A stretch of 64,000 nt of DNA from contig DHXV01000001.1 in assembly GCA_002415345.1 (NCBI GenBank), positions 248,907 through 312,906 of the forward strand, given 5' to 3'. The notes under the pieces are model-generated. The model was not told the origin of the DNA. It worked only from the letters and a program-made list of their open reading frames with translations, and ran no database searches. Both the position numbers and the translations under genes were made by a program. Numbering within the stretch: the first letter of the stretch is position 1; every line of letters begins with the position of its first letter. Positions 528 through 50,880 of the stretch are shown here, piece after piece. Origin of the DNA: Patescibacteria group bacterium UBA5147 (lineage in GTDB: Bacteria; Patescibacteriota; Saccharimonadia; UBA4664).

Positions 528-1490
528 TCATATGATTGTACTTGTGTCAATGATATTGCGGACACTGTCCGGCCCATCTCCAGAGGGCGCCAAATATAGC
601 TTAAGTGTATGCCGGGCGTTAGGCTCCAAATTCAGGCTCTGCATCGCCTCGGCGCCGGTCAGCCATACATGGCCCTGGGCTTCGTCGTCCAACACCACGC
701 GCTTCGATCCTACCTTGACTACATAATCACTAAAAATGTGGTTTACATGCTCCTGGTAGTAACCCGACCCCTTGAATTGATCGAAGGTCACAATATGCCG
801 GCCAACCTTGGCACGGAGCCCCGTCTCTTCCCTAACGCCGCGCACCAAGGCTTCATCGAGCCGCTCGCCCCGTCCGACTTTCTCACCGATCATCGAGTAT
901 CGGCCGCCCCATTTGTGGGTCTTTACGAACAGTAGCTCCGTTTCATTGGCGGCGGCGTATTCGATAATTGCTCCCACTGCCACCGTTGATCCCGGAACTA
1001 CCAAGCGCTGCCATAATCGGTGAATCAAGTACTCGTTCGGATCGATTAGCGGGGCCGGCAATCGATTATATTCACTGATGTAGTCCACTAGTTCACGTGG
1101 CGACCAAATCGAATTCTTCACCATATAGCCAGGATGGTCGATGGGCCGTTCCATGAAGAAGCAGCGGGTATTCGTGAGTTGAGCTATGCCCCACTCAAAC
1201 GACGTGCTGCGGCCGATATAGCCCCTGGGGTCAACGAAATAGCTGAAACCGTTGCCGCCCAACCGTTTCAGGTTATGGAGATACCGTGCCTCAATGTAAC
1301 GCGGGTCCAGATCTTCTTCGCCTTTGAGAACAGCAAAGCCGTCAGTCGAGGCAATAATATCAGTTGCTTCCGGAGCCAGAACCGTAAAGCCGGCGGCTTC
1401 GAAAACCTCGACTGCTTCGAGAATCTGGTCGAAGTGGCGGCGAAAGCTGCCGTGGACCACTATTCGAATATCGGCGGGCCGTAGTGCCAT
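528..1490 (-). CDS. Two-domain protein: uncharacterised N-terminal ~180-aa domain fused to a C-terminal NUDIX hydrolase domain
   Basis: 320-aa ORF. The C-terminal half carries a Nudix box (GGRYSMIGEKVGRGERLDEALVRGVREETGL = G-x5-E-x7-REuxEExGu). The N-terminal domain is not recognised. Antisense ORFs 609..935 and 1134..1484 are judged spurious. Confidence 0.6.
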   Translation of the reverse strand: MALRPADIRIVVHGSFRRHFDQILEAVEVFEAAGFTVLAPEATDIIASTDGFAVLKGEEDLDPRYIEARYLHNLKRLGGNGFSYFVDPRGYIGRSTSFEWGIAQLTNTRCFFMERPIDHPGYMVKNSIWSPRELVDYISEYNRLPAPLIDPNEYLIHRLWQRLVVPGSTVAVGAIIEYAAANETELLFVKTHKWGGRYSMIGEKVGRGERLDEALVRGVREETGLRAKVGRHIVTFDQFKGSGYYQEHVNHIFSDYVVKVGSKRVVLDDEAQGHVWLTGAEAMQSLNLEPNARHTLKLYLAPSGDGPDSVRNIIDTSTII

Positions 1491-2178
1491 AAGCCAAACT
1501 CTGTACTTATTTAAACCATGATATCACGCGGCGTTCCGTCACTTGACCCTACATACTTTTTTACAACACTTTGCCTCGGTATTTTTTTGAAAATATCCGG
1601 TGATTAACTAGACATTTCTGTAGTTTCGTATCAGGCATCGAACCGGCATAGTGAGTAAACTTTGTCTTACGTTCATCGAAATTTTGATGTTACGGAACAA
1701 CTTCCGGACAGTCCATGCAGTGGTAGCCTTCGCGGTGGCCATATGCGGAAGATTCGTTCGGTGGGCTGGTGTTTCGCGCAAGCGACACGCCAGTGGCCAG
1801 CTGCTTCTCACAGCTGCCAATGGATGGAGAAGGCTGTGGCGCAAGCTATCGTCTAATCCAACCTCCACTCTCCGGGTTACCTGGTTCTGCGGAATCACGG
1901 TCCAAAAACGATAGTGGGCAACCACGTGCGGGTAACCGCGTCTAGGAGAGGATCTTCGGTCGGTAATGGTAACGAATCGCTTCGGCGAGGAATGCTTCCG
2001 GGTAAAATGGGGCCAAAAGCTTCAGAGAAGCCAGAGGAAACTGGTGGTTGGGCGACCGACCTACAAATGACATGTGGAGATGACGAATCCGAAGTTCGCC
2101 GTCTCCACCACCCCCAACTTTCGTTGGGACACAGGTCTACCTTAACGGGTGGGCCTTTTTCCATTTTAGCTTTTCTTT

Positions 2179-8211: not shown

Positions 8212-8697
8212 ATGGACCCCCAAGACGCGCCGGAGCACATTGACTGGCCGCAAAAGTTCGTCGAGTTGGATGACGCCATGACCGAAGCTGATGTCATCGA
8301 ACAGGACCTTGTTGCCGCTAAGCGCAAGGAACAAGACGCCAAGACCATCTTTAAGGCGGCCATGATCGTGGTTAGAGATATCGATGACCAAAAAACCACC
8401 AACCGCAATCGAGTTGGCTATGTCATGGGGCGGCACTTGAATGACCACCCCGTACGCATCATCCACGGAACCGCGGTGGCCAAGGATAAGCACCCGGATA
8501 GCAGCATGCATGATTTTGCGAGGGACGACACCGTTCTAGACGGCGAGGACGCCACAGTCTTTAGCGGTGGCAATCTCCGTACTCAGCAAAGTCTCGGACG
8601 TCGCGGCTTCGGACTCACCGTTAGGGTTGGCAAGCAGCTCTACATCATCGTGCCGACCGAGTGTGAACTTGAAATCGGCGAAATCCCCCCGGCGTAA
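8212..8697 (+). CDS. Hypothetical protein
   Basis: 161-aa ORF, acidic N-terminus, no motif recognised. Confidence 0.35.
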   Translation: MDPQDAPEHIDWPQKFVELDDAMTEADVIEQDLVAAKRKEQDAKTIFKAAMIVVRDIDDQKTTNRNRVGYVMGRHLNDHPVRIIHGTAVAKDKHPDSSMHDFARDDTVLDGEDATVFSGGNLRTQQSLGRRGFGLTVRVGKQLYIIVPTECELEIGEIPPA

Positions 8698-8721
8698 GTA
8701 CCCTGCAGTACTTACGCTCTT

Positions 8722-9831
8722 TTATTCCCAGCGGAAGACACGGAAGGCCAGGACGTAGATGACTATGATCCACGCCCCAATCAGACCAAGCTGTGGTCCC
8801 AACTCCAGCAGGGATTTGTTTTCTGTCGCGATCATGCGCAAGCCGTCGATGACCGGGCTCAACGGAATGAAGGCCGAAGCATTCTGCAACCATCCCGGCA
8901 TCAAGTACCGTGGGAAAAATACCCCGGAGAGGAACATCATGGGAAACGACACCAAGTTGCCAAGGGGTGCCGACTGTTTCTCATCGTTGGCCCAGCCGCC
9001 CACGGCCATGCCGAACCCAAAGACCATGATGGCCGACAGGAGGGCAAAGATGGTGAATTCAAAGATATTGCCCCGCATATGGAAATGGAAAAAGCTGATG
9101 GCGACTACGAACTGAACGCCGATCGATACCACTCCGGCCGCCAGGGCCGATATCATATAGGCGATCACGAACTGCAGCGGACGCAGCGGAGTCGTACGAA
9201 AGCGACGGAGGGCGCCGGTTTTCTTGAGGGCGGGCAGCGTGTTGATCGGCCCAAAGATACCTAGACCAAGCAGAGAGAACCCCAACAGGCCGGTAAAAGC
9301 GTAATCAAACGCGCTCAACCCCGATTGGGCAGTCGACTTAGAGACGACCCCCAGCGGCGGCGTAATTCCCGTAACCTTGGCGTTAATGCCGGTAAAGATG
9401 CCGTCTAAAATTGACGCCACCGCCTGGCCGGCCTGGGCACCGCTCTGGTCGTAGAGGACCTGGGCCTGTCCGCCCGGGAAATGCTGCGCGTTTGCTTCGC
9501 CGAATCCCGATGGCAGCACGATGATGCTGACGATTTCGCTGCGTCCCAGTTTGGTCTTGGCCTCGTCGAGCGTCCCGACGTCCTTAACCTTGAGAATGGC
9601 GCTGTTGTGGAGGGAGCCGTCAAACTGCTTGGAAAAGGTTGTTCGGGCCTGGTCAATGACCGCGACGTTAAATGACCCGCCATTTGATTTACCAAAGATC
9701 CCGCCAAAAATAAACAGCAAAATCAGCGGGAATAAGACGCTGAAAAACAACGCTGTTTTCGAACGAAAATAGCGCTTGGTGAACAGGACCGACAAGTGCC
9801 AAGTGGTAAACAGATATCGCTTGATGGTCAT
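8722..9831 (-). CDS. ABC-2 type transporter permease
   Basis: 369 aa. N-terminal TM helix, large extracytoplasmic loop, then a C-terminal 5-TM bundle typical of ABC-2 exporters. 4-nt overlap with the upstream ATPase gene. Confidence 0.7.
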   Translation of the reverse strand: MTIKRYLFTTWHLSVLFTKRYFRSKTALFFSVLFPLILLFIFGGIFGKSNGGSFNVAVIDQARTTFSKQFDGSLHNSAILKVKDVGTLDEAKTKLGRSEIVSIIVLPSGFGEANAQHFPGGQAQVLYDQSGAQAGQAVASILDGIFTGINAKVTGITPPLGVVSKSTAQSGLSAFDYAFTGLLGFSLLGLGIFGPINTLPALKKTGALRRFRTTPLRPLQFVIAYMISALAAGVVSIGVQFVVAISFFHFHMRGNIFEFTIFALLSAIMVFGFGMAVGGWANDEKQSAPLGNLVSFPMMFLSGVFFPRYLMPGWLQNASAFIPLSPVIDGLRMIATENKSLLELGPQLGLIGAWIIVIYVLAFRVFRWE

Positions 9832-10589
9832 TCTCGCAGGTCCTTGCCGGTTAAGTCGATAAACACGTCTTCCAGCGTGGCGGCCTGGACATCAACGTGA
9901 GGTTTAAAGCCGCGCTCCAGCAGATCCTTGATAAGTTTCTTTGGGGCATCCAGAGCAATAATCTTGCCGTCGTCCATGATGGCCACGCGGTCACAGAGCA
10001 CCTGGGCCTCTTCCATGTAATGAGTGGTGAGAATGACGGTCACGCCCTCGTCGCGGATCGACCGGACCAGCCCCCACAGGTTGCGGCGGGCCTGCGGATC
10101 AAGGCCGGTAGTCGGCTCGTCTAAAAACAGTACCTTGGGCCGGTGAACCAAGGCCACGGCAATACTGAAACGTTGCCGTTGCCCTCCTGAGAGCTGCTCC
10201 GGATAGGCTTTGGCCTTGGACTCCAGCCCCACTTTGCCGAGCAAGCCCATTACGTCGGCCTTGCCGCCATACATGGCGGCAAACGCGACGATCAGTTCGC
10301 CGAGGCGTACCTCATCCAAAAAAGCCGAGCTCTGCGGCTGGACGCCAATGATTTCTTTGACGCGCTCCACGTTCGAGGCCACGTCAATGCCGTCGATTGC
10401 AACCGAGCCTCCGGTGATATCCCGCAGCCCCTCCATCATCTCCAGAGTCGTGGTTTTCCCCGCGCCATTGGGACCCAGGATACCGAAGACTTCACCGAGT
10501 TTGACGTCGAAGGATATACCCTTGACGGCTTTGATTTCGCCGTAGGTTTTCCTGAGCTCCTGAACTGAAATAAAAGCGTTTTCTGGCAT
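9828..10589 (-). CDS. ABC transporter ATP-binding protein
   Basis: Walker A GPNGAGKTT, ABC signature LSGGQRQR, Walker B VLFLDEPTTGLD. Confidence 0.9.
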   Translation of the reverse strand: MPENAFISVQELRKTYGEIKAVKGISFDVKLGEVFGILGPNGAGKTTTLEMMEGLRDITGGSVAIDGIDVASNVERVKEIIGVQPQSSAFLDEVRLGELIVAFAAMYGGKADVMGLLGKVGLESKAKAYPEQLSGGQRQRFSIAVALVHRPKVLFLDEPTTGLDPQARRNLWGLVRSIRDEGVTVILTTHYMEEAQVLCDRVAIMDDGKIIALDAPKKLIKDLLERGFKPHVDVQAATLEDVFIDLTGKDLRE

Positions 10590-40024: not shown

Positions 40025-40276
40025 ATGAAGATAACCGTTTACAGTACCCAGACCTGCGCCTACTGCGCCATGCTCAAGCGTTGGCTCGATGAACGATCGC
40101 TGAAGTATACCAACCATAACGTCGACGAGGACAGGAATGCCGCCGCCGAAATGGTGAGCTTGAGCGGACAAATGGGCGTCCCGTTCAGCACCATCGAACT
40201 TGATGACGGCCGCAAAGCCAAAATTCTCGGCTTTGACGTGGAAAAATTCGAAGCGGTGTTAAGCGCAGCCAAGTGA
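40025..40276 (+). CDS. Glutaredoxin-like protein (NrdH/YruB-type)
   Basis: CAYC active site at residues 11-14. 83 aa. Thioredoxin fold. Confidence 0.75.
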   Translation: MKITVYSTQTCAYCAMLKRWLDERSLKYTNHNVDEDRNAAAEMVSLSGQMGVPFSTIELDDGRKAKILGFDVEKFEAVLSAAK

Positions 40277-40308
40277 AACGGTAAGAATAATCTCGGAGGA
40301 TTTGAATA

Positions 40309-40527
40309 ATGAAGTTCGCGAAATTTATAGTAAGCACCTGGGGACGATTGATAAGGATTGTTGCGGGTTTGGCACTGGTGTATTACGGCTTCATCGTGCT
40401 TGGTAGCACGCTCGGAGTTGTGGTTGGACTGGTCGGTCTGGCTCCAGTGATGGCCGGAATCTTCGACTTTTGTATCTTTGCCCCGCTCTTCGGCGCCCCG
40501 TTCTGGGGTGAGGACATTAGAAAATAG
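40309..40527 (+). CDS. DUF2892 (YgaP-like) small membrane protein
   Basis: 72 aa. WGRLIRIVAGLALVYYG...GIFDFCIFAPLFGAPFWG pattern typical of the rhodanese-associated DUF2892. Confidence 0.5.
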   Translation: MKFAKFIVSTWGRLIRIVAGLALVYYGFIVLGSTLGVVVGLVGLAPVMAGIFDFCIFAPLFGAPFWGEDIRK

Positions 40528-40862
40528 CCGCTTGTAAACTAGCCTGGAATAATCGATACCGAATACGCTCCAGATTAATTTGAATATGATACCAAAAAGC
40601 GGCCTTGCGGCCACCTCCGGGAGCCGAATGTCCGGCTCGGGTTATTTTGTGATGCTAGAACAGATTCCCGCCATCAAATAACACTTCATCTATCGACTTT
40701 GGTCTATCGATCTTACTTTCTTGAGGGGGTTCCAATATCTGGTTGTCGGTAATCGGACGTTCCGCTGTTTCGCCTTTGGTATACCGCAGCGGAGCCAAGA
40801 AGTCTGCTATCAAGAAGGGGCGCTTTGGCAGCTCCTTCTTCCATATTGGAAAACCCTCCATA

Positions 40863-41249
40863 TTAGTTGTCGGATCCGTCGTGGCCGGAGCCAGAACCGT
40901 GACCGCTTGAGTGGATTTCGGTCGTGTCATTGTCATCGGCTTTGAGGCCGTCGTTCATGCGATCTTCAACAGCTGGAGTAGCCGTTGGCGACGGGCTGGC
41001 TGATGGAGTCGGAGTGGCTTCAGCCGCTTCCTCAGTCTGGTTCTCATTGGCGTCATTCTCGTTGGCATCATTTTTATTGGAATCGTCGGCTATATTCTGC
41101 AACTTCCCGTGGTTGTCGCCAAGCTGAGCCATGACGCCACGGTCCTCTTGTCGAACATCGGTCGCAGCCTTGGGAGTGGTAACTTCGCCTTGGTGCGCCA
41201 GGGCAACAACAGGAACCGCAATTGAGGCTGCAGCAATTAAGGTTATAAT
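40863..41249 (-). CDS. Secreted low-complexity acidic protein (signal peptide, DANEN repeats, Gly/Ser/His-rich tail)
   Basis: Signal peptide MKKYIITLIAAASIAVPVVALA. The track ORF extends to 41318. Confidence 0.4.
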   Translation of the reverse strand: MITLIAAASIAVPVVALAHQGEVTTPKAATDVRQEDRGVMAQLGDNHGKLQNIADDSNKNDANENDANENQTEEAAEATPTPSASPSPTATPAVEDRMNDGLKADDNDTTEIHSSGHGSGSGHDGSDN

Positions 41250-41305
41250 ATACTTCTTCATTCTGATAGACTCCTTAATTATTAACTTCATACCAGGTGT
41301 AACGG

Positions 41306-41827
41306 ATGGGCTCGCCATTCGTTACACTAGGCAGAGAGAAATTTATGTATCGCAAGCGCAGGTTCAGCACAATGTACTCACGTTACGCGAATGATATATT
41401 TCGCTTTATCTACATGTTCGTCCGGGACGAGGCACTGGCGGAGGATTTAACCGCTGACACCTTTGCCAAGGCCTGGAAGAATCTTGAAAGCTTCGATTTT
41501 CGTCACCCCAAGGCATGGCTGTACCAAATAGCGCGCAATCTTGTAACCGATCACTGGCGCAAACACAAAACGCTGCCCCTGGATGAGGACTTCGAGATTG
41601 CCGATACCAGGGACACGCCGGAAGTGGAGGTTGGGCGCAAGTTGGCCGACGCCAACCTTATGAGCAAAGTAGGTCAACTGCCACAAGAGAGTCAGTCGAT
41701 TGTAACGCTGCGATTTATTCTCGGCTACTCGGCCCGCCAGACCGCCGAAGCATTAGGAATGACCGAGGCCAACGTCCGCGTTAAGCAACACCGGGCGCTT
41801 AAGAAACTCAAGGAGTTATTGCAATGA
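41306..41827 (+). CDS. ECF-type RNA polymerase sigma-70 factor
   Basis: Region 2 (YLQIARNLVTDHWRK) and region 4 HTH (LRFILGYSARQTAEALGMTEANVRVKQHRALKKL). Probable start at Met 41363/41372. Confidence 0.8.
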   Translation: MGSPFVTLGREKFMYRKRRFSTMYSRYANDIFRFIYMFVRDEALAEDLTADTFAKAWKNLESFDFRHPKAWLYQIARNLVTDHWRKHKTLPLDEDFEIADTRDTPEVEVGRKLADANLMSKVGQLPQESQSIVTLRFILGYSARQTAEALGMTEANVRVKQHRALKKLKELLQ

Positions 41828-42447
41828 AATGGAATTTTTACAAGAAGGAGCTTCGCCACGAGGCGGCCGATGCAACTGAAGCTGCCGAACTGGCGGCTTT
41901 GGCCCGGCAGGTTTCCCAGGTGAAGTTGCCGGAGCTGAGCGCTGGGGCCAAAGCGCGGATTGCAGGCAATCTAGGCATCACCACCCACCGGATTGTCCAG
42001 CCGTGGGTGCTCGGCAGCGCCATGGCGGCCGCTATCGTACTGGTGTCAGTCGTAACTCTGGCCCAATTCTCGCGCCCAGGCTCGCCGCTCTACTCGATCA
42101 AGCACCAGACGGACAAACTCCAGCAGTTTATTAATCCTGAGCCGAGCAAATCCCCCGTTCCGGCTACACGCGACCAAACGAGCAATCCTGCGGGAGAGCA
42201 CGAATCAGGATCAGACGACCGTAAAGTCGGCGCCACACCCATCCCAACCGGCAGCACAATTGATGATAAGTCCGGATCGGGTAGCGATGGCGGCACGGGT
42301 GGCTCAAGCGGTTCCGGCGGGACAAGCGGCTCAGGTGACACCAGTGGTTCCGGTGGCTCCAGCGGTCCGTCCGTCGATAGCGGGACAAGTGGCGGGGATT
42401 CTACCTCCGGCGGGCGTGACGCCACTAGCGGCCACGACGGGACTTAG
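41824..42447 (+). CDS. Candidate anti-sigma factor (single TM, Gly/Ser-rich extracytoplasmic tail)
   Basis: Overlaps the sigma-factor stop (ATGA). TM helix WVLGSAMAAAIVLVSVVTL. Confidence 0.45.
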   Translation: MKWNFYKKELRHEAADATEAAELAALARQVSQVKLPELSAGAKARIAGNLGITTHRIVQPWVLGSAMAAAIVLVSVVTLAQFSRPGSPLYSIKHQTDKLQQFINPEPSKSPVPATRDQTSNPAGEHESGSDDRKVGATPIPTGSTIDDKSGSGSDGGTGGSSGSGGTSGSGDTSGSGGSSGPSVDSGTSGGDSTSGGRDATSGHDGT

Positions 42448-42484
42448 GCCGCAGGCTGCTCCCGGCAGCGAGGTGATGTTAGAA

Positions 42485-42973
42485 CTAAAATACAAATAGC
42501 GTAACCTCGCCAGCAGGAGTTTGTTGAGTACCGACTTCTGTTGCCCCGAATTGGAGCAAGGTTCGCTTAACATGCTTGTTTTGACTCCATGTCCCACAAA
42601 CGGGAACAGCCCCTCGCTCCCTAACATCATTCAATCTGTAGACAAGCAAGGATCTCCAGATACCGCGGCCGCTTAATGCCGGGTCCACAAACGCACCACC
42701 TAATTCGATAAGGCGGACATTCTTGGAGGCGTTGACCCCTTTTCGCCATACCGGCATGTGCTCCGGGTTGGGTTCTTCAATCATTCCATGGCCGACAATT
42801 CGACCCGCCATAACCGCAACGTAACGCTCAATGGCTTTTCTGGCATACAGTAGTTTGCCAAGCTCATTCGGGGGATAAATTGCGGGGTTGGGAAGTAATG
42901 TAGCGGCTTGCGACCTTTGATATAGCCTGACAATCTCGGCCCTATCAGATCGTTTAGCTTTTCGAATTTCCAT
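42485..42973 (-). CDS. GNAT-family N-acetyltransferase (cassette 8)
   Basis: 162 aa with an acetyl-CoA-binding-like segment. The stop codon abuts a GTTCTAAC repeat copy. Confidence 0.45.
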   Translation of the reverse strand: MEIRKAKRSDRAEIVRLYQRSQAATLLPNPAIYPPNELGKLLYARKAIERYVAVMAGRIVGHGMIEEPNPEHMPVWRKGVNASKNVRLIELGGAFVDPALSGRGIWRSLLVYRLNDVRERGAVPVCGTWSQNKHVKRTLLQFGATEVGTQQTPAGEVTLFVF

Positions 42974-43053
42974 ATCCTCATAATAGCAAAAAGAGCCCGT
43001 AAAGGCTCTTCTCAGAGTATAATCACTGCCCCATCATTGTCGGCAGGCGTATG

Positions 43054-43248
43054 CTACAAATGCAAAAAGGTCAGAAACGCATGGACAAGAAATGCCGGCC
43101 AGAATATGGCCTTGAAAATGCCAACGATTACCAACCAGAAACTAGTGGCATGCTGAAAGTAGTAAATGGCCGCCCCAATCAGGCCAAGTCCATATACCGC
43201 GTCACCACCACCCCGATTCACGCTCGCGCTCTTTAGTCTTGCTCTCAT
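43054..43248 (-). CDS. Small membrane protein, hypothetical
   Basis: 64-aa track ORF with 2 TM helices. Confidence 0.3.
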   Translation of the reverse strand: MRARLKSASVNRGGGDAVYGLGLIGAAIYYFQHATSFWLVIVGIFKAIFWPAFLVHAFLTFLHL

Positions 43249-43250
43249 TT

Positions 43251-43559
43251 CTATGCCTCCTTATCTTCAGGAAGACCGGCAAAGTCCTTCTTCGTCTGGA
43301 TATACCATCCCATTCCCGCGATGGGATTTTTCCATCTGCCCTGCATCAACTTCAAGGCGCTCTGGTGCGTTTCGTCACCCCCTGCAACCATCGCTTTTAG
43401 ATGGGCGTCTTCCGCTTTGATAACGTCATCGGCCGTTTTTCCGTGGAAGGCTACATCACATGGACCACCCATTTGTTTACACGTCATTGTCTTCATAATG
43501 CTTCTCACTTTCATACGCATTATAGCGTAATGTTTCGTGAGCGATATTAGAACCGCCAT
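43251..43559 (-). CDS. DUF1059-like small protein (probable start MKTMTCKQMGG at ~43509)
   Basis: MTCKQMGGPCDVAFHGKTADDVIKAEDAHL resembles the DUF1059 family. Confidence 0.45.
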   Translation of the reverse strand: MAVLISLTKHYAIMRMKVRSIMKTMTCKQMGGPCDVAFHGKTADDVIKAEDAHLKAMVAGGDETHQSALKLMQGRWKNPIAGMGWYIQTKKDFAGLPEDKEA

Positions 43560-43570
43560 AGTTTTTCAGT

Positions 43571-44086
43571 CTAAGCCAAGCTCAGGGTAGCCGAATAGTC
43601 TCCCGGGTTCTCTTTGAACGTGGCGCCATTCTTCCTCCATATCCGCACCGACGCTGCAGCAGTTTTTGGAATGGTTGCCACCAGCTTGCTATCGCCGTTT
43701 GCCTTGGCCTCGTCGATTATCAAATCAAAGGCCTTTGTGGCATATCCTTGGTTCCACTTCGCACTCGAAAGCCAATATCCAACTCTTGCGCAGCCTTGCT
43801 CCAAACCTTTCCGAGAAATAGATATGGTGCCTATCGGCATATCACCAAGCAGAAGGCAGTATGTCTGCCCGTCCTGCCTTTCCATCCACTCTTCACATGT
43901 ACGCAAGAAACTGCTGGCATCGATATGCCCGTGGCTGCCCAAGACGGCTTGTAACTCAGCGTCCGTCTGGAGAATTCGGACAAGATCCGAGGCATGCTGT
44001 CGGCCTAAAGGTTGGAGATGAATAGGCATAGTATATGTCCTTTTACTACGGATCGTGGCGGAAGTTAGAACCATAATGGCCGGCAC
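43571..44086 (-). CDS. GNAT-family N-acetyltransferase (probable start MPIHLQPLG at ~44031)
   Basis: GNAT pattern (VGYWLSSAKWNQGYATKA). The upstream in-frame extension contains a degenerate repeat copy and is probably non-coding. Confidence 0.55.
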   Translation of the reverse strand: MPAIMVLTSATIRSKRTYTMPIHLQPLGRQHASDLVRILQTDAELQAVLGSHGHIDASSFLRTCEEWMERQDGQTYCLLLGDMPIGTISISRKGLEQGCARVGYWLSSAKWNQGYATKAFDLIIDEAKANGDSKLVATIPKTAAASVRIWRKNGATFKENPGDYSATLSLA

Positions 44087-44497
44087 TTACATAAATTCGT
44101 GACGATACTTTTCGACATTGGCTTCAAATGGCAGCTTCGAAATCTCAACTTCTACGACAGATTCTGGCAATCCTGAAATATCAAAACATCTTACCGGTTT
44201 GCCCGTTTTATTAAACGTATTTATCTCCGAGAGCATCCCATCACTTATGTCTCCATACACCCACAGCTCATCACATCGGAGAAGCAGGTTGTTGTTACCA
44301 TTACGTACCATGTCACGCTCGACCAACTCGTACAGGTAATAGCCAAAAACATTGAAGGGATTAATGGGCACTACGCCTTCGTTAAATGCATGCCGACAAA
44401 TCAACATTCGTTGATGAAAGTTCTTGGCTGACTGGGCTGTAAATACAACCAACTTTTCCGCAACCAATTTGTCCGCTGAATGTTGAAAGCTATTCAT
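44087..44497 (-). CDS. Hypothetical protein (136 aa)
   Basis: Cassette ORF, low GC, no motif recognised. Confidence 0.4.
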   Translation of the reverse strand: MNSFQHSADKLVAEKLVVFTAQSAKNFHQRMLICRHAFNEGVVPINPFNVFGYYLYELVERDMVRNGNNNLLLRCDELWVYGDISDGMLSEINTFNKTGKPVRCFDISGLPESVVEVEISKLPFEANVEKYRHEFM

Positions 44498-44545
44498 AGC
44501 ATGAGTATAACAAAAGAGGCCATCGCTTGGCCTCTGTTGAGTTGA

Positions 44546-44582
44546 ATAATATCTGGCTCCGGGTCGTGGTCGATGTTAGAAC
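44546..44582 (-). repeat. Cassette-associated direct repeat copy R4 (AATAATATCTGGCTCCGGGTCGTGGTCGATGTTAGAAC on the + strand)
   Basis: Abuts the stop of 44582..45013 and is followed by an intrinsic terminator hairpin (AGAGGCCAAGCGATGGCCTCT plus TTTTGTT on the minus strand). Confidence 0.8.
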
Positions 44583-45013
44583 TATGCTAACGCAGAATCT
44601 ACGTCTTGCTGCGTAACGTCAGAAAACGGCACTCTCGGATCGTTGTAGTGACGAGTTCGGTAAATTTTGTTATCTCTTACCTCGCAAACGGCTACCTGAG
44701 GTGTTAGATACAATTGACCCGTTTTGGGATTTGGATAGCTCTCAACAAACTCGATCATGACTGTTTGCTTGGACTCATCAGCCATAGCATTCACGAATTG
44801 ATATTTGCGATCCTTAATCTGATATACCTCACCTATGCTTTTCCGAGCCGTTCCTGCACTAACATATGGGAACAGAACGTTGCCTCTGTTACCCATCGAC
44901 ATTTCGGTAGCCTTAAAATCATCGGCCACCAGTTCAAGGCCCCGAGTAACGTCATTCTGGCGTTCTGCTTCGAAAGAACCAAGTACCAATTTGAGTAAAT
45001 TTTCGCTAGTCAT
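44582..45013 (-). CDS. NTF2-like / SnoaL-like small protein
   Basis: 143 aa with an NTF2-like fold pattern by eye. Cassette ORF. Confidence 0.4.
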   Translation of the reverse strand: MTSENLLKLVLGSFEAERQNDVTRGLELVADDFKATEMSMGNRGNVLFPYVSAGTARKSIGEVYQIKDRKYQFVNAMADESKQTVMIEFVESYPNPKTGQLYLTPQVAVCEVRDNKIYRTRHYNDPRVPFSDVTQQDVDSALA

Positions 45014-45059
45014 ACTAGTATAATATCAAAGATGAGCCCTAATGGGCTCATCTTTGGGG

Positions 45060-45098
45060 AATAATATCTGGCTCCGGGTCGTGGATGACGTTAGAACC
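45060..45098 (-). repeat. Cassette-associated direct repeat copy R3 (AATAATATCTGGCTCCGGGTCGTGGATGACGTTAGAAC)
   Basis: Lies 2 nt beyond the stop of the Nudix cassette gene. Followed on the minus strand by the terminator hairpin AGATGAGCCCTAATGGGCTCATCT plus TTTGATATT. Confidence 0.8.
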
Positions 45099-45099
45099 G

Positions 45100-45618
45100 C
45101 TATTTATTAAGGAGCGTCTTCAAAACCGGAATTACCCTCCCTAGGTAAGATGAAATCTTCATCTCAGGCGAGGGTGATTGGAGTGACTCATAAGTATAAA
45201 AACTTGCAGTCTCGATTGCGGCTTCTTCTAAGGTAAATGGACCATTGTGCTTGGCAATAAATACCGACACCATTTCGTTATATTCCGCAGAATAAAATTT
45301 TTCTGTCAGCTGCAATTCTGCGGAAACTCCAAGTTCCTCATACAGCTCCCTATTAGCAGCATCAATATATGACTCTCCTGCTCGCACGTGTCCAGCCGCG
45401 GAACCCGACCAGTACAATGGAAGGGACTTTTTGGTCGACTTTCTTTGTTGCAGGAAAACTTTTCTATCGTCGTTTATTAGCAAAACAAATACAACTCGAC
45501 ATGTCTGATTAGATGCGATTGCATGGGTCTTTGGCATAACCCCTATAACCTTATCGTCTGAATCTACAACATCTATATACTCCACTTCTAATGGACTGGC
45601 AGGGCTGTTTGTAGTCAT
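45100..45618 (-). CDS. NUDIX hydrolase
   Basis: Nudix box GHVRAGESYIDAANRELYEELGV. 172 aa. Confidence 0.7.
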   Translation of the reverse strand: MTTNSPASPLEVEYIDVVDSDDKVIGVMPKTHAIASNQTCRVVFVLLINDDRKVFLQQRKSTKKSLPLYWSGSAAGHVRAGESYIDAANRELYEELGVSAELQLTEKFYSAEYNEMVSVFIAKHNGPFTLEEAAIETASFYTYESLQSPSPEMKISSYLGRVIPVLKTLLNK

Positions 45619-45672
45619 ATAGCCATTATGGGCTAGTCTGATTCAAACGTCCAAAGTAAACAGTTTTGTATG

Positions 45673-45710
45673 AATAATTCCTGGCTCTGGGTCGTGGTCG
45701 ATGTTAGAAC
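45673..45710 (-). repeat. Cassette-associated direct repeat copy R2 (AATAATTCCTGGCTCTGGGTCGTGGTCGATGTTAGAAC)
   Basis: ~45 nt downstream of the stop of 45757..46080. Confidence 0.8.
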
Positions 45711-45756
45711 TCTGATTAGATCAGGCTCTTATACAAATATTTCGCGCAATTATATT

Positions 45757-46080
45757 TTAGCGACTCTTCTCGCGAAATAGCGTATACCAGCCAAGAATAT
45801 TGGGAAGTCGTTTCCCGCCGTCACTGAATTTCAATTCTATGCTCCATTCATCCCCAAGCTTCACGACTTCATGCGATAGCCCATCTTTTAAGTATGAGCC
45901 GTCTGGATAATCTTCATACAGAAGTACGTACTCCCTGCCCTGAATTTGGAAGTGGTGCGCCCATGCGTCTAAATCGACTTTTCCATGGCTGACCCATGCT
46001 ATTTTATCGAGTTTAATAATACCTTCGTAGCGAGGTAAAATAACAGCTTCATAAAATTGTTCGAGAAACTTCTCGTTCAT
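45757..46080 (-). CDS. Small hypothetical protein (107 aa), possible partner/immunity-like protein of the upstream coiled-coil protein
   Basis: Follows 46178..47248 after a terminator-like hairpin. No motif recognised. Confidence 0.35.
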   Translation of the reverse strand: MNEKFLEQFYEAVILPRYEGIIKLDKIAWVSHGKVDLDAWAHHFQIQGREYVLLYEDYPDGSYLKDGLSHEVVKLGDEWSIELKFSDGGKRLPNILGWYTLFREKSR

Positions 46081-46118
46081 AATAATTCCTATTCTAGCAG
46101 CTCTAAAAAACTACGGAA

Positions 46119-46153
46119 GGGCGTCCCGCTGCAAGTTGCACAGCGGGACGCCC
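46119..46153 (-). terminator. Intrinsic terminator (GGGCGTCCCGCTG-loop-CAGCGGGACGCCC followed by a U-run on the minus strand)
   Basis: 13-bp perfect stem. Minus-strand tail TTCCGTAGTTTTTTAG. Confidence 0.6.
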
Positions 46154-46177
46154 CAATTATCTCTTACATCCGTTAAG

Positions 46178-47248
46178 TTACCGGAGATCGTCGTAGATGA
46201 GCGTGTGAGGGTCATCTCTGAGAGCTACGGCATGATGGTGGCCAGGGGCGAACGGCCCGTTGGGACCGTAGTAGATATCAATCTTCGGTTGCTCCTGATT
46301 ATTCGTGTTCGATTCCACAAAGGCGTCGTATCCACGAAACCGGCACCGAAAGCCAAATTCTCCGACACTTGTGTTCTCGGCGCCGATTACGTCGTCGTAA
46401 TCCTGCTGGGCGTCAGTGAAGTTCTGACCTCCATGCTCGTCGAAAGGCTCTCGACGGTACGTCACGTTGCCGTAGGAATCCATGGCGTAGTGACCGTGAC
46501 CAGGACCGTTGGCAGAACCGGAGCCACCGAAGTAAATATTGACCGTACCGTCAGGCGCGGTCGTTACCCACAAGTCGTCCAAGTACTGATACGGCACACC
46601 GGCCTGCTCAGCCAGTGCGCGCTTGTCAGTCTGGCGCCGCTGCCGTTCATCGCGAACGGCTTCCAGGCGAGCCTGGAATGCACTTTTTGCACTGTTGAAA
46701 ACTGCTTTGGTGCGCCTAAACTCCTCCTGCTTCTGTTCGTGGTCGGATTTTGCACGGGCATGCTCGGCTCGCGCAGTGTCGAACTCGGCCTTGGCACGCT
46801 GGAAGGCGGGCGTGGCAGCTGTGTGCCGATCTTTGGCGTCCCGAAGTTCCTGAACAAGCTGCCGCCGTTCCGCGACTGCTTCTTGGGATTCGGCCTTGTA
46901 GCGGTGGCCCTCGTCAGCGTACGTGCGCGCCGACAGACCATCGCGCGCATCGTGAGCCGACGAGGCTCGGTCGAATGCGTCTTTCATATTCTCGAACGCG
47001 GCTTCTTGCCGTGAATTGAGCATTTCGATTCGCGGGCCATAGCTGTCACGCAACCGCTGAAGATCCTCCCAGACAGATTGCTGGGCTTCGTACGCTGTCT
47101 GCTTGGCATGATACGCTCGATCCATCACCTCGCGTGCGGCCTGGCGCCGCTTCCAGGCTTCATCTTGTGCCAGCCACGCTGTCTGGTTTTGCTGGTACGC
47201 GTACGTTTGTTGCATCTTGAATCGGTCGAGCTCTATGTCTCGGGCCAT
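46178..47248 (-). CDS. Coiled-coil protein with a C-terminal Gly/His/Tyr-rich globular domain, hypothetical (polymorphic-toxin-like architecture is speculative)
   Basis: 356 aa. The N-terminal ~200 aa form a heptad-rich Arg/Glu/Ala/Gln coiled coil. The C-terminus contains GGSGSANGPGHGHYAMDSYGNVTYRREPFDEHGG. Confidence 0.4.
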   Translation of the reverse strand: MARDIELDRFKMQQTYAYQQNQTAWLAQDEAWKRRQAAREVMDRAYHAKQTAYEAQQSVWEDLQRLRDSYGPRIEMLNSRQEAAFENMKDAFDRASSAHDARDGLSARTYADEGHRYKAESQEAVAERRQLVQELRDAKDRHTAATPAFQRAKAEFDTARAEHARAKSDHEQKQEEFRRTKAVFNSAKSAFQARLEAVRDERQRRQTDKRALAEQAGVPYQYLDDLWVTTAPDGTVNIYFGGSGSANGPGHGHYAMDSYGNVTYRREPFDEHGGQNFTDAQQDYDDVIGAENTSVGEFGFRCRFRGYDAFVESNTNNQEQPKIDIYYGPNGPFAPGHHHAVALRDDPHTLIYDDLR

Positions 47249-47427
47249 GTCACGTCACCTACTTGTATAAGGAGCGAAGTTCACGCGGATAGCGTGAATA
47301 GATAATTTGGCACAAAATCAACAATAAAGCAATGTTAGAATCTTTGATTCTAATCCAAAATGCAACTATGCCCATGAATAAATAAATCGATCTTCGACAA
47401 AAAAGAAGCTAAAGTTAGCCTCTTTTT

Positions 47428-47470
47428 AAGCATAATTCCTTTGGCTCCGGGTCGTGGTCGATGTTAGAAC
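47428..47470 (-). repeat. Cassette-associated direct repeat copy R1 (AAGCATAATTCCTTTGGCTCCGGGTCGTGGTCGATGTTAGAAC). Its first 23 nt match the tRNA-Asn 3' end and flank at 48697-48720 at 22 of 23 positions
   Basis: Preceded by a copy of the tRNA's downstream terminator (AAGAAGCTAAAGTTAGCCTCTTTTT versus GAGGCTGAAATTAGCCTTATTTT). Confidence 0.8.
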
Positions 47471-47533
47471 TAATCTCACTACGAATACGATGACGAGCTA
47501 GACATCAAAAAGCTGCCATGAGACCCTATTGGT

Positions 47534-47791
47534 ATGAACAAACGTTATTTAGCAATTGCCGGATACTTAGTAGCCCTAGCTTTGATAGTCGTCTCGATAG
47601 TCTATTTTACTACCCCAGCAGATCACCTGCCGACACTTTTTCCCGGTCATGACATCGCCTCTACCAAGACCCACGCCAAACATGGTCTTGCCGCCATTCT
47701 GCTCGCTCTTGGAGCGGTGGCGTTTGCTTGGTTCCAAGGAGGGCCCAGCTCACCGAAGGAAGAACAGCGAGGACCCAATTCCGACAACTAG
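47534..47791 (+). CDS. Small membrane protein, hypothetical (convergent overlap with the uppP 3' end)
   Basis: 85 aa with 2 TM helices. 42-nt overlap with uppP lowers confidence. Confidence 0.3.
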   Translation: MNKRYLAIAGYLVALALIVVSIVYFTTPADHLPTLFPGHDIASTKTHAKHGLAAILLALGAVAFAWFQGGPSSPKEEQRGPNSDN

Positions 47792-48604
47792 GCAATAAAT
47801 GCCAAACGGTGTCAGCGAGTTGGTCTTGAAGTACCGCGTCAAAAACTTTACGGAAAAATAGGCGCTCACAGCCGTAAAAATTGCCCCAACGATACAGGGA
47901 CCGATAAGCCCCGCGTTACTTGCCTGAAACAATTCGGGCAACTTAAGGACTGCCGCCGCCAGTATGATTGGCGTGGCCAACAGGAAGGCAAATTCGGCCG
48001 CATCCTCATGCGAGAGCCCGTTGAGCAGTCCGCCCGCCATCGCTGAGCCCGACCGCGATAGACCCGGGATTAGTGCCAGTGCCTGGGCGCCTCCAATCAT
48101 CATCGAATTAACCCAGGATAACCGGCTAAGGCGACTCACGGCGTCGCCAGAGCCGGAACTTGCTGCTCTGCGGCGTAAGTATTCCGCCCCTAGTAGGATA
48201 AGCCCGTTTATGGCCAAGAAAAACGCCGCTGATTTACCGGTCACGAAAATCATCCTTATCTGATCCTGAAACATAACCCCGATGAGGCCGGCAGGAATCG
48301 TTCCTACGATCAACAACCAGCCCAATTTTGCGCTATAATCCGTACTTTTAATCTCACGCTGCTGGATTGAGCGGATAATCCCAGTCCCGATTCTTATCCA
48401 TGTGTGCCTATAAAACCCAATTAGCACCAGTGCCGTCGCCAGATGCGTAGCCACCAGGAAAACTAAAAACGAGTTATCGTTTTCATGAATATTCCACCCC
48501 AGCAGGCTCGGGAGAATGACGCTGTGCCCCAGGCTCGATACCGGAAATAGCTCCGCAGCACCCTGGAGGAGACCCAAAATAATGGCTTGGACGTAGTTGA
48601 TCAT
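47750..48604 (-). CDS. uppP: Undecaprenyl-diphosphate phosphatase
   Basis: BacA/UppP motifs SSLGHSV, PGLSRSGSAMAGGL. 8 TM helices. 284 aa. Confidence 0.85.
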   Translation of the reverse strand: MINYVQAIILGLLQGAAELFPVSSLGHSVILPSLLGWNIHENDNSFLVFLVATHLATALVLIGFYRHTWIRIGTGIIRSIQQREIKSTDYSAKLGWLLIVGTIPAGLIGVMFQDQIRMIFVTGKSAAFFLAINGLILLGAEYLRRRAASSGSGDAVSRLSRLSWVNSMMIGGAQALALIPGLSRSGSAMAGGLLNGLSHEDAAEFAFLLATPIILAAAVLKLPELFQASNAGLIGPCIVGAIFTAVSAYFSVKFLTRYFKTNSLTPFGIYCLVVGIGSSLFFLR

Positions 48605-48711
48605 TGAGGTAACGTTACACGATTAGGCCAAGCGGCGCAAAGTCTGACATGCGGTAGCGTATACAAAGCAAAATGAGGCTGAAATTAGCCTTATTTTAAG
48701 CATAAGTCCTT

Positions 48712-48786
48712 TGGCTCCGGAGGCCGGGCTCGAACCGGCGACCCAGCGATTAACAGTCGCTTGCTCTACCACTGAGCTACTCCGGA
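48712..48786 (-). tRNA. tRNA-Asn (anticodon GUU), CCA encoded
   Basis: Reverse complement reads TCCGGAG-TA-GCTCAGTGGTAGAGC-A-AGCGA-CTGTTAA-TCGCT-GGGTC-GCCGG-TTCGAGC-CCGGC-CTCCGGA-G-CCA. 7-bp acceptor stem, GTT anticodon in a 7-nt loop. Followed by the terminator AGGCTAATTTCAGCCT plus CATTTTGC. Confidence 0.85.
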
Positions 48787-50262: not shown

Positions 50263-50880
50263 TTAGTACTTTCGGATAAGGCCGATAACGGTTCCCTGGA
50301 TTTCAATCTGGGTGCCCGGTTTGATGATGATAGGCTCCATCGCGGAGTTGGACGGCTGCAGGCGGATGTGGGTCTTCTCTTTGAAGTAGCGCTTGAGGGT
50401 AGCTTCCCCGCCGTTGATGAGAGCGATGACCATTTCGCCGTTGGAGGGAACTTCTTTTTCCTGCACCACGACGTAATCGCCGGAGTTAATGCCTTCATCG
50501 ACCATCGAGTCGCCCTTGACCTGGAGAACGTAGGAGTTGCGGCGGCCGACCATGAACGGCGGTACTTCCAGGGTTTCGGCGTGGCGGCCGAGGGTTTCGA
50601 TCGGCTGGCCGGCGGCAACCAGGCCCATGATGGGCAGTTCGACCGAATGCGAGAGGTCCATGTCCTGTTTGACCAGCTGGATAGAGCGGGCCTCGTTGTC
50701 GCCCTTTTGGAGCATACCCTTGGTGACCAGCGAATCGATGTGCTCGGCGACGGTTGCGACCGAACCGTACTTGAAGTGCGCGGCGATCTCGCGGTAACTG
50801 GGTGCGTAACCGTAGAGCTCGATGAACTGCGTGACGTAATCGAGGACTTCATGTTGTCGTTTTGTTAGTGGCTCGGCCAT
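50263..50880 (-). CDS. lexA: LexA repressor
   Basis: N-terminal wHTH (LTKRQHEVLDYV). Ala-Gly cleavage site (VAAGQP). Ser/Lys dyad (GDSM ... KRY). 205 aa. The overlapping antisense 265-aa ORF is judged spurious. Confidence 0.9.
   Translation of the reverse strand: MAEPLTKRQHEVLDYVTQFIELYGYAPSYREIAAHFKYGSVATVAEHIDSLVTKGMLQKGDNEARSIQLVKQDMDLSHSVELPIMGLVAAGQPIETLGRHAETLEVPPFMVGRRNSYVLQVKGDSMVDEGINSGDYVVVQEKEVPSNGEMVIALINGGEATLKRYFKEKTHIRLQPSNSAMEPIIIKPGTQIEIQGTVIGLIRKY

Follow-up and report, generated by a model that had tools for sequence, protein, structure and literature searches.

How do bacteria with reduced genomes gain accessory genes? The question arises for Patescibacteria of the candidate phyla radiation (CPR), whose genomes are tiny, whose recognised mobile elements are few and whose accessory-gene gain is poorly understood. 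It is raised in concrete form by a stretch of 64,000 nucleotides from an ultra-small member of the Saccharimonadia, Patescibacteria group bacterium UBA5147 (contig DHXV01000001.1, positions 248,907 to 312,906), referred to here as the window and numbered from its first letter. In this window a tRNA-Asn gene is followed by a series of small genes punctuated by a short direct repeat. A first-pass annotation, made from the sequence alone, had proposed serial site-specific accretion of single-gene cassettes at an attB site formed by the tRNA-Asn 3' end, in the manner of an integron or of a cluster of attC sites lacking integron-integrases (CALIN). The analysis reported here supports the accretion at the tRNA by the repeats, by the turnover of cassettes between relatives and by an intact mobile element at the same place, and it rejects the kinship with integrons. 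The region is quite probably a genomic accretion island at the attachment site of a large serine recombinase (LSR) on the tRNA-Asn 3' end, consisting mostly of cassettes that carry no recombinase.

A direct repeat anchored on tRNA-Asn

The anchor of the array is tRNA-Asn(GTT), the sole tRNA gene of the window, located at 48712-48786 on the minus strand (ARAGORN; Rfam tRNA 69.5 bits) and followed by a terminator hairpin at 48676-48691 on the same strand (terminator scan). Read on the gene strand, the repeat unit spans 29 nt, GTTCTAAC-RTC-NN-CCACGAC-CCGGAGCCA, and its final 9 nt, CCGGAGCCA, are those of the tRNA-Asn 3' end, an identity that had already been noticed in the first reading. The window harbours four intact and three to four decayed copies, all downstream of tRNA-Asn and on its strand. 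The 28-nt core GGCTCCGGGTCGTGGTCGATGTTAGAAC (plus strand) finds four matches with no more than 3 mismatches, at 44555, 45070, 45683 and 47443, and none elsewhere in the 64 kb; with zero matches expected by chance (100 shuffles), the direct repeat beside the tRNA is confirmed.

Numbered outwards from the tRNA, R1 (47442-47470), R2 (45682-45710), R3 (45069-45097) and R4 (44554-44582), all on the minus strand, agree with the consensus at 29, 28, 26 and 29 of 29 positions, and the decayed R5 (44043-44071, minus strand) at 22/29. Mismatches thus run 0, 1, 3, 0 and 7, with truncation beyond, in line with the earlier remark that identity falls away from the tRNA. R1 is also 86% identical over 51 nt to the tRNA-Asn 3' flank with its terminator. 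The degenerate copies proposed at first are supported at 44043-44071 (R5; nhmmer E 6e-5), at 43535-43554 (R6, truncated) and at 42453-42484 (R7, first 15 nt intact). A further 'partial copy' at 47332-47342 dissolves on inspection: it is only a 10-mer with one mismatch, of which about four are expected per window.

When copies from different genomes are aligned, conservation takes the form of two blocks split by a tolerant stretch, with positions 9, 12 and 13 variable. Positions 25-29 (AGCCA) are conserved in 27-34 of 34 copies, even though the pattern used for searching metagenomes had left them free. An Rfam scan identified no family for the repeat and matched only the real tRNA, and a scan of viral contigs gave 0 matches. 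Two other identities were considered and set aside. The repeat is not a tRNA 3' half, as its T-stem and acceptor registers are unpaired, nor a Xer/dif-like site: ATGTTAGAA recalls a XerD arm and has no inverted partner arm.

The repeat has a narrow distribution. A scan with the pattern CYGGGTCGTGGNNGANGTTAGAAC over one genome per species (185,579 species) matched seven 8-kb blocks in five metagenome-assembled genomes of Saccharimonadia/Patescibacteria, always as arrays; in four of the five genomes the same block contains tRNA-Asn, upstream of and co-oriented with two to six copies. Metagenomes added 17 contigs of the same layout. Two loci fetched through a neighbouring protein instead of the pattern, L044 and L045, carry copies with 0-6 mismatches. 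Judged by identical proteins, the window itself belongs to Saccharimonadia contigs reaching 286 kb, which turn up in several metagenome assemblies (JGI, ENA, Logan). Because the genome scan matches only arrays, with tRNA-Asn in four of five genomes, the repeat is an array element tied to this tRNA and is not dispersed. The outcome that the first-pass annotation had named as contrary to its proposal, a genome-wide repeat resembling repetitive extragenic palindromic (REP) elements, was not obtained: all window copies lie within the island, and the repeat does not fold.

A second repeat subfamily was seen in L009, L014, L015 and L020-L024, from low-GC subsurface metagenomes. Here AAACAG precedes the repeat and conservation ends after CCGGAG; no tRNA was seen on these short contigs. 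In L011, a single small contig, two identical copies stand inverted, at 841-873 (minus strand) and 1702-1734 (plus strand), an arrangement due to inversion between the sites or else to faulty assembly. Genes of the Y1_Tnp (IS200-like) family are found close to arrays in L006 (208-930) and L020 (3275-3973). As Y1 transposases are absent from the window and from most loci, their presence was judged incidental and they were rejected as the agent.

Large serine recombinases at the same tRNA

What, then, inserts DNA at this tRNA? No integrase had been noticed in the window, and a Pfam search bears this out and finds none within about 8-10 kb past either end, so that some 82 kb in all are free of recombinases. 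Since the window and its vicinity hold no LSR, the link to such an enzyme rests on related genomes. In L045 and L046, whose cyclopropane-fatty-acid (CFA) synthase is 83% identical to the window's, the space beside tRNA-Asn is filled by a 507-aa LSR. In L045 the gene occupies 8360-9880 and encodes Resolvase (residues 4-117) and Recombinase (182-263) domains; a Zn_ribbon_recom domain is found in close homologues, and the N-terminus resembles the catalytic domain of the TP901-1 integrase. Its neighbours are a Phage_CRI-type Rep, a SpoVG-like protein, a helix-turn-helix (HTH) regulator, a SocA_Panacea-domain protein with a small open reading frame (ORF), and a NUDIX protein. The element is bounded by the CCA of the tRNA, at which the LSR lies, and by a 29/29 repeat 8,544 bp away; past it follows a further small cassette with its repeat, that is, at least one unit without recombinase.

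The LSR reading frame runs antisense into tRNA-Asn, so that its final 13 codons are tRNA sequence. The integrated tail, WLRRPGSNRRPSD (L045 9842-9883, antisense tRNA-Asn), is the same in L047, L052, L056 and L057. When the ends of the element are rejoined in silico, the frame stays open across the attP junction, and the tail of the rebuilt circular form becomes WLRVVVDVRTFFVSA, encoded by the repeat. Four further LSR clusters (64-76% identical) have a stop region that overlaps the tRNA-Asn 3' end and share the Rep/SpoVG/HTH backbone. The antisense abutment thus holds in all five clusters examined (64-100% identical), in three chromosomal contexts, and members of the LSR clade belong to Saccharimonadia and Patescibacteria. 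In L005 a 94-aa C-terminal LSR remnant between the tRNA and the first repeat is a decay intermediate.

The cargo of these elements overlaps little with that of the window. Comparison of the window's cassette proteins with LSR-element cargo yielded just two matches, a distant one to BacA (31%) and one to the L002 cassette encoding DUF1059. The BacA/UppP gene concerned, at L047 3775-4569, is carried by an intact LSR element together with copper/cation efflux genes, which suggests that cell-envelope and metal-resistance genes are recurrent cargo.

Geometry of the putative attachment sites

Serine integrases act on sites of defined geometry, and the repeat and the tRNA can be compared on this footing. 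The putative attB-type site extends over 48692-48736 (minus strand) and comprises a T-loop 9-mer, GGTTCGAGC (48728-48736), the core CCGGAG (48715-48720), CCA (48712-48714) and roughly 20 nt of the 3' flank, AAGGACTTATGCTTAAAATA. The repeat has as its outer 9-mer GGTTCTAAC, which agrees with GGTTCGAGC at 7/9 positions, the sole match of at least 5/9 in the tRNA. This 9-mer stands 21 nt before CCGGAGCCA in the repeat; its tRNA counterpart stands 16 nt before CCGGAGCCA, and MAFFT, unaided, sets a 5-nt gap at the same point. In LI integrase the 9-nt motif bound by the zinc ribbon covers bp 16-24 of the attP half-sites and bp 11-19 of attB (PMC3783163). Judged from the sequences, the 5-bp displacement of the outer motif is this known attP/attB offset of serine integrases.

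When the LI geometry is applied to both sites, the predicted crossover falls on the GG within CCGGAG. Directly to the left of CCGGAG the tRNA and the repeat diverge, directly to its right the second repeat subfamily varies, and both limits agree with a putative crossover inside this hexamer. The variable repeat positions 9, 12 and 13 would fall in the region of the inter-domain linker.

Turnover of cassettes between relatives

Comparison of related loci for cassette variation, a check suggested at the outset, reveals differences in content or order. The CFA synthase gene upstream of tRNA-Asn is a conserved neighbour. In L044, where this enzyme is 91% identical, both flanks are as in the window (LexA and VanW at the tRNA end; glutaredoxin, rhodanese and Fur at the far end), and the cassettes between these shared flanks are wholly different. 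Synteny with L044 runs as far as 48710, which is two bases beyond the end of the tRNA, and restarts at 40276; the island is therefore delimited as 40277-48711. L002 and La2, whose flanks are 77-85% identical, have two cassettes in common in a different order, and La2 contains a further unit, located directly at the tRNA. The window's DUF1059 cassette is also present in L002. L015 and L020 likewise share segments in different order.

A recurrent cassette build

The cassettes share a compact design. After the CCA come 18-20 nt resembling a tRNA trailer, a G+C-rich hairpin with a T-run, a TGnTAnnnT box and an ATG. The trailer-like flank falls into at least two classes, AAGGACTTATGCTTAAAA and GRWATTATT..., and the terminator starts 18-20 nt past CCA, at the edge of a 24-25-bp half-site. 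In most units the TGnTAnnnT box follows the T-run directly and ends 6-7 nt 5' of the ATG, and a Shine-Dalgarno sequence is lacking; by its placement it would be a -10-like box, and the cassette ORFs are apparently leaderless. This arrangement is seen in the window at 44498-44553, 45014-45068 and 45619-45681, and also in L002, L013, L018, L019 and L044. A distance of 44-63 nt separates CCA from the ORF start in at least 12 units, drawn from many loci. Between the end of the ORF and the next repeat there are 0-46 nt. Site-to-site distances, taken over 34 units, run from 371 to 8,544 bp (median 662 bp). The gene of a 356-aa coiled-coil protein in the window differs from most cassettes in having a long leader and an AGGTGA Shine-Dalgarno sequence.

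Proposed mechanism and competing explanations

These observations can be assembled into a model of LSR-driven accretion. The agents would be small, plasmid-like integrative elements of Saccharimonadia, equipped with an HTH regulator, a SpoVG-like protein, a Phage_CRI Rep and the LSR. The 29-nt repeat would combine the left half-site of the element (P arm) with the core common to both sites. In order, it would contain a zinc-ribbon motif on the outside, RGTTCTAAC, then RTCNN as a linker that tolerates change, CCACGACCCG as the inner block, and the crossover in CCGGAG. A full attP of 50 bp would consist of GTTCTAACATCGACCACGACCCGGAGCCA followed by 20 nt of right flank. An LSR-bearing circle organised as P-core-P' would recombine with the tRNA end, and the tRNA would be regenerated because the incoming DNA supplies AGCCA to the right of the crossover. 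As each insertion would take place at the tRNA, older units would be pushed outwards and a copy of P arm and core left at the far end of each insert, distal copies decaying as they are displaced. Cassettes without recombinase would depend on an LSR provided in trans and would comprise a right half-site of about 18-20 nt, a terminator, a -10-like box, a leaderless ORF and a P arm. By analogy, the window in its present condition, without LSR, may be regarded as functionally CALIN-like. Deletion of full elements, as in L005, and homologous recombination between junction modules of 70-90 nt both probably contribute.

Several points weigh against this model. Only one intact LSR element is visible with both ends, and among the genes called from about 9.5 kb to the left to about 8.3 kb to the right of the window no recombinase Pfam family is represented. 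Within the window's own population, sought through UppP (12 contigs) and the SnoaL-like protein (19 contigs), cassette order is invariant at the 6 and 10 places listed, respectively, and the cassette-wise variation anticipated there did not appear. Nor did a search for terminal overlaps return any contig representing an excised circular cassette, another of the checks suggested at first. In the cassette common to L002 and La2, strong homology starts at the T-run/-10 box and not at CCA, and the hairpin differs; this break fits mosaicism through homologous recombination. At least two classes, AAGGACTTATGC... and GRWATTATT..., can be told apart among the right half-sites of the cassettes, and they match an inverted zinc-ribbon motif weakly. 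Most demanding is the reaction itself. Canonical serine integrases recombine attP with attB only, and not attP with attL. Repeated insertion beside the tRNA would require that the tRNA joined to an incoming right half-site, formally an attL, still serve as a target, and reuse of an occupied site is a known property of the Ccr enzymes of staphylococcal cassette chromosome (SCC) elements but is not known of phage integrases. Right flanks next to tRNAs belong to the same classes as those next to internal repeats, which would be compatible with right half-sites that are interchangeable and a reaction that is reversible, by analogy with promiscuous Ccr.

If that were so, a bolder version could be contemplated, in which the locus is the serine-recombinase counterpart of an integron: the 3' end of tRNA-Asn would offer a standing place of insertion at which minimal single-gene cassettes, all equipped with a complete attP-like site, a terminator and a promoter for leaderless expression, are captured, stacked, excised and reshuffled one at a time, with the LSR visiting on a small Rep-bearing element. 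This needs an interchangeable attB/attP right half-site, such that insertion regenerates attB at the tRNA and leaves an attP at every junction. It is a tentative proposal, more doubtful than not; if true, it would imply a non-canonical, reversible mode of LSR action and a main route of gene gain in reduced Saccharimonadia genomes.

Could the array instead be debris? Whole LSR elements may have inserted serially and suffered internal deletions, each leaving one cargo gene and the far attachment site, so that cassettes never move singly. The LSR remnant in L005 is what such decay would leave, the right flanks of class B (reverse complement AATAAT(ATC/TCC)TGG, read as N-N-I/S-W) resemble the LSR tail DDNNW, and decayed distal copies together with an array invariant in its population fit as well. 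Random deletion, however, should not yield one compact build time and again (flank of 18-20 nt, terminator, -10-like box, ATG at +44 to +63), nor unit sizes that peak at one small gene; the window array contains no LSR or Rep pseudogene fragments, and cassettes that are unrelated and come from distant samples have almost perfect P arms. This history is therefore unlikely, if a serious contender. Distinctly less credible is RecA-dependent homologous exchange after natural transformation, with the 70-90-nt junction module serving as portable homology and no recombinase involved. Modules (repeat, flank, terminator and promoter) from unrelated cassettes and genomes are indeed 75-92% identical over 70-90 nt, and the homology break in the L002/La2 cassette falls inside the module; Saccharibacteria are naturally competent (PMC10633639). 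Such exchange leaves unexplained the anchoring on the tRNA-Asn 3' end, the two blocks with their tolerant linker and an LSR element bounded by the very same sequence, and the 29-nt block is far better conserved than the remainder of the module.

The two remaining explanations fare much worse. A role at the RNA level, as a 3' untranslated region or a mimic of the tRNA 3' end in processing or stability, or alternatively a dispersed REP-like nature, might be entertained since each cassette gene is transcribed with the repeat at its 3' end, and the repeat has CCGGAGCCA in common with the tRNA. It has, though, no predicted structure, Rfam family or complementary acceptor strand and is not dispersed, and neither cassette turnover nor the boundary of the LSR element would be accounted for, which makes this very improbable. 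A true integron or CALIN, with folded attC sites and an IntI-type tyrosine recombinase encoded elsewhere, is more improbable still. Small co-oriented cassettes with a site just past the stop codon are suggestive, and GTTCTAAC loosely resembles the attC inverse core RYYYAAC. Yet four copies folded as single-stranded DNA on both strands in 49-nt windows scored z -1.17 to +0.51 against shuffles, yielding no attC-like bottom-strand hairpin, and in full intergenic units of 86-90 nt only the terminator hairpin forms, the 29-nt block remaining unpaired and without R''/R' pairing. The absence of canonical R''/R' boxes, noted from the start, is thereby upheld, and the suggested integron- or CALIN-like kinship falls: it is linear sequence that is conserved and not structure, most cassettes have a terminator and a -10-like box of their own, and the associated recombinase is a serine enzyme and not an IntI-type tyrosine recombinase. 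Since there are no attC sites, the array is not a CALIN by definition.

Layout of the island in the window

The array can be followed unit by unit along the island (40277-48711; blastn against L044, with L045 synteny ending at 48712), which is flanked by glutaredoxin, rhodanese and Fur genes on one side and by tRNA-Asn, CFA synthase, LexA and VanW on the other. Unless stated otherwise, genes and repeats are on the minus strand. Unit 1, next to the tRNA, encodes the 284-aa undecaprenyl-diphosphatase BacA/UppP (47750-48604; Pfam BacA 3.5e-68) and an 85-aa membrane ORF on the plus strand (47534-47791), annotated as a gene on other contigs. R1 follows, with 18 nt resembling the tRNA flank and a terminator at 47400-47427. 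Unit 2 (45757-47248) holds the 356-aa coiled-coil protein (46178-47248) and a 107-aa protein (45757-46080), neither with a Pfam match; a terminator at 46113-46129 precedes the smaller gene, and R2 closes the unit. A perfect palindrome, TTAGAATCAAAGATTCTAA, lies at 47322-47345, 5' of the coiled-coil gene; it contains the supposed 'partial copy' and may be an operator.

Unit 3 consists of a 172-aa NUDIX hydrolase (45100-45618; Pfam 4.4e-16), ending at R3 with its terminator at 45027-45056, and unit 4 of a 143-aa SnoaL/NTF2-like protein (44582-45013; weak Pfam match), the G of whose TAG stop codon is the first base of R4. Here the terminator at 44515-44535 is succeeded by TTTTGTTATACT, with the ATG 6 nt on. 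A 136-aa DUF7768 protein (44087-44497; Pfam 3.2e-11) makes up unit 5, closed by R5 (nhmmer E 5.7e-5), and a 152-aa GNAT acetyltransferase (43571-44029; Pfam Acetyltransf_3 1.2e-14) unit 6. Alignment with the homologous DUF1059 cassette of L002 indicates that R6 (43535-43554) is truncated after CACGA and joined straight to the promoter of the next gene. Unit 7 (42485-43496) comprises an 81-aa DUF1059-like protein (43251-43496; weak Pfam match), a 64-aa membrane ORF (43054-43248) and a 162-aa GNAT (42485-42973; weak match), and ends at R7 (42453-42484), in which GTTCTAACATCACC is intact and the remainder contains indels. Unit 8 (40863-42447) includes an anti-sigma-like protein (41824-42447, plus strand; Pfam), an extracytoplasmic function (ECF) sigma factor (41306-41827, plus strand; Pfam) and an ORF of 132-151 aa (40863-41318), all absent from L044. 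Beyond it a newly found decayed candidate, R8 (40633-40661), reads GTTCTAGCATCAC...ACCCGAGCC and is followed by a hairpin and TTTTTGGTATCAT. It extends the array past the limits first assigned to it, to the edge of the non-syntenic island, and is probably its distal end.

Against this layout the first description of the array needs adjustment. Not every one of the eight units is a single-gene cassette; three or four contain 2-3 genes. A repeat just after the stop codon of a minus-strand gene is not the rule at R1, from which uppP ends 280 nt away with the plus-strand 85-aa ORF in between. Terminators, said to follow most copies, are clear only for R1, R3, R4 and the tRNA, and of the region given as about 43-50% GC only 44-46 kb is low in GC (43-44%). 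The functional calls were sound: Pfam returns the NUDIX protein, the GNATs and, weakly, SnoaL and DUF1059, and adds BacA and DUF7768. Outside the island, LexA is encoded at 50263-50880 on the minus strand, two genes from tRNA-Asn, and this neighbourhood is kept in L044, L045 and L056.

Significance and comparison with known systems

The locus suggests a well-defined way of gaining genes for Patescibacteria, in which DNA lands at tRNA-Asn by means of a recognisable 29-nt site and a particular LSR/Rep element family. Scanning metagenomes for the site is enough to trace it. The locus also poses a mechanistic question for serine integrases, namely how an occupied site is reused and how arrays of minimal attP-bearing cassettes arise. 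An LSR with a native Saccharimonadia attB could serve as a tool for DNA insertion in bacteria that are hard to manipulate, and the standard cassette build of terminator, -10 box and leaderless ORF offers a natural set of expression modules. Interest is moderate to high because of these minimal standardised cassettes, the unusual demand on serine-integrase directionality and the value as a CPR tracer and tool. The literature searched, with incomplete coverage, contained no prior account of such arrays or of the LSR/tRNA-Asn pairing in Saccharibacteria/Patescibacteria.

With integrons and CALINs the array has in common small co-oriented cassettes, a site past the stop codon, a fixed insertion end and a recombinase that is often missing. 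It differs in having neither attC hairpins nor IntI, a sequence-conserved site of double-strand type, cassettes with a terminator and a promoter-like box of their own, and a tRNA as anchor instead of attI. Streptococcal integrative and conjugative elements (ICEs) offer another parallel, since their cis-mobilisable elements (CIMEs) are recombinase-less, att-bounded units that line up in tandem beside an autonomous element. The integrases on which CIMEs rely are tyrosine enzymes; CIMEs are also larger and have not been pared down to a standard cassette of one gene. The serine integrase att systems of phages and ICEs, such as A118/LI, phiC31 and Bxb1, share the Resolvase-Recombinase-Zn ribbon architecture, an int gene at the edge that reads across attP and the 5-bp motif shift (PMC3783163). 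In contrast to the situation proposed here, they insert once per attB and do not reuse the occupied site, and no arrays of recombinase-less cassettes are known for them.

The tycheposons of Prochlorococcus combine an integration and replication module with cargo at tRNAs, newcomers pushing older units inwards, and repeats of partial tRNAs as well as remnants are dispersed across the island (10.1101/2020.12.28.424599). Tyrosine recombinases are used by 910 of 937 elements of this type (10.1101/2020.12.28.424599). Whereas tycheposon repeats are partial tRNAs, the repeat described here is made of 9 nt derived from the tRNA and 20 nt of recombinase arm, and a regular array of minimal cassettes is undescribed for tycheposons. 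For SCC elements the inserting enzymes are large serine recombinases (Ccr) and the target is the rlmH/orfX 3' end; recombinase-less pseudo-SCC (psiSCC) units exist. The likeness to staphylococcal SCC composite islands is that a serine recombinase acts on a conserved housekeeping gene, at its 3' end, that units accrete in tandem, each junction being marked by a direct repeat, and that many units have no recombinase of their own and have to use one provided in trans (10.1101/336396; 10.64898/2026.03.31.715619). Features of this kind are evident in the eight LSR-free units of the window and in L045, where an LSR unit is accompanied by at least one recombinase-less unit. The differences concern the target, here a tRNA, the size of the units (single genes of about 0.4-1.3 kb as opposed to 5-60 kb), the CPR host and the Phage_CRI Rep; a single LSR is present, of a Saccharimonadia/Patescibacteria clade, and nothing in the tests made relates it closely to Ccr. 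Functionally, SCC composite islands and tycheposon islands are the closest known systems, and the tRNA-Asn locus belongs to neither.

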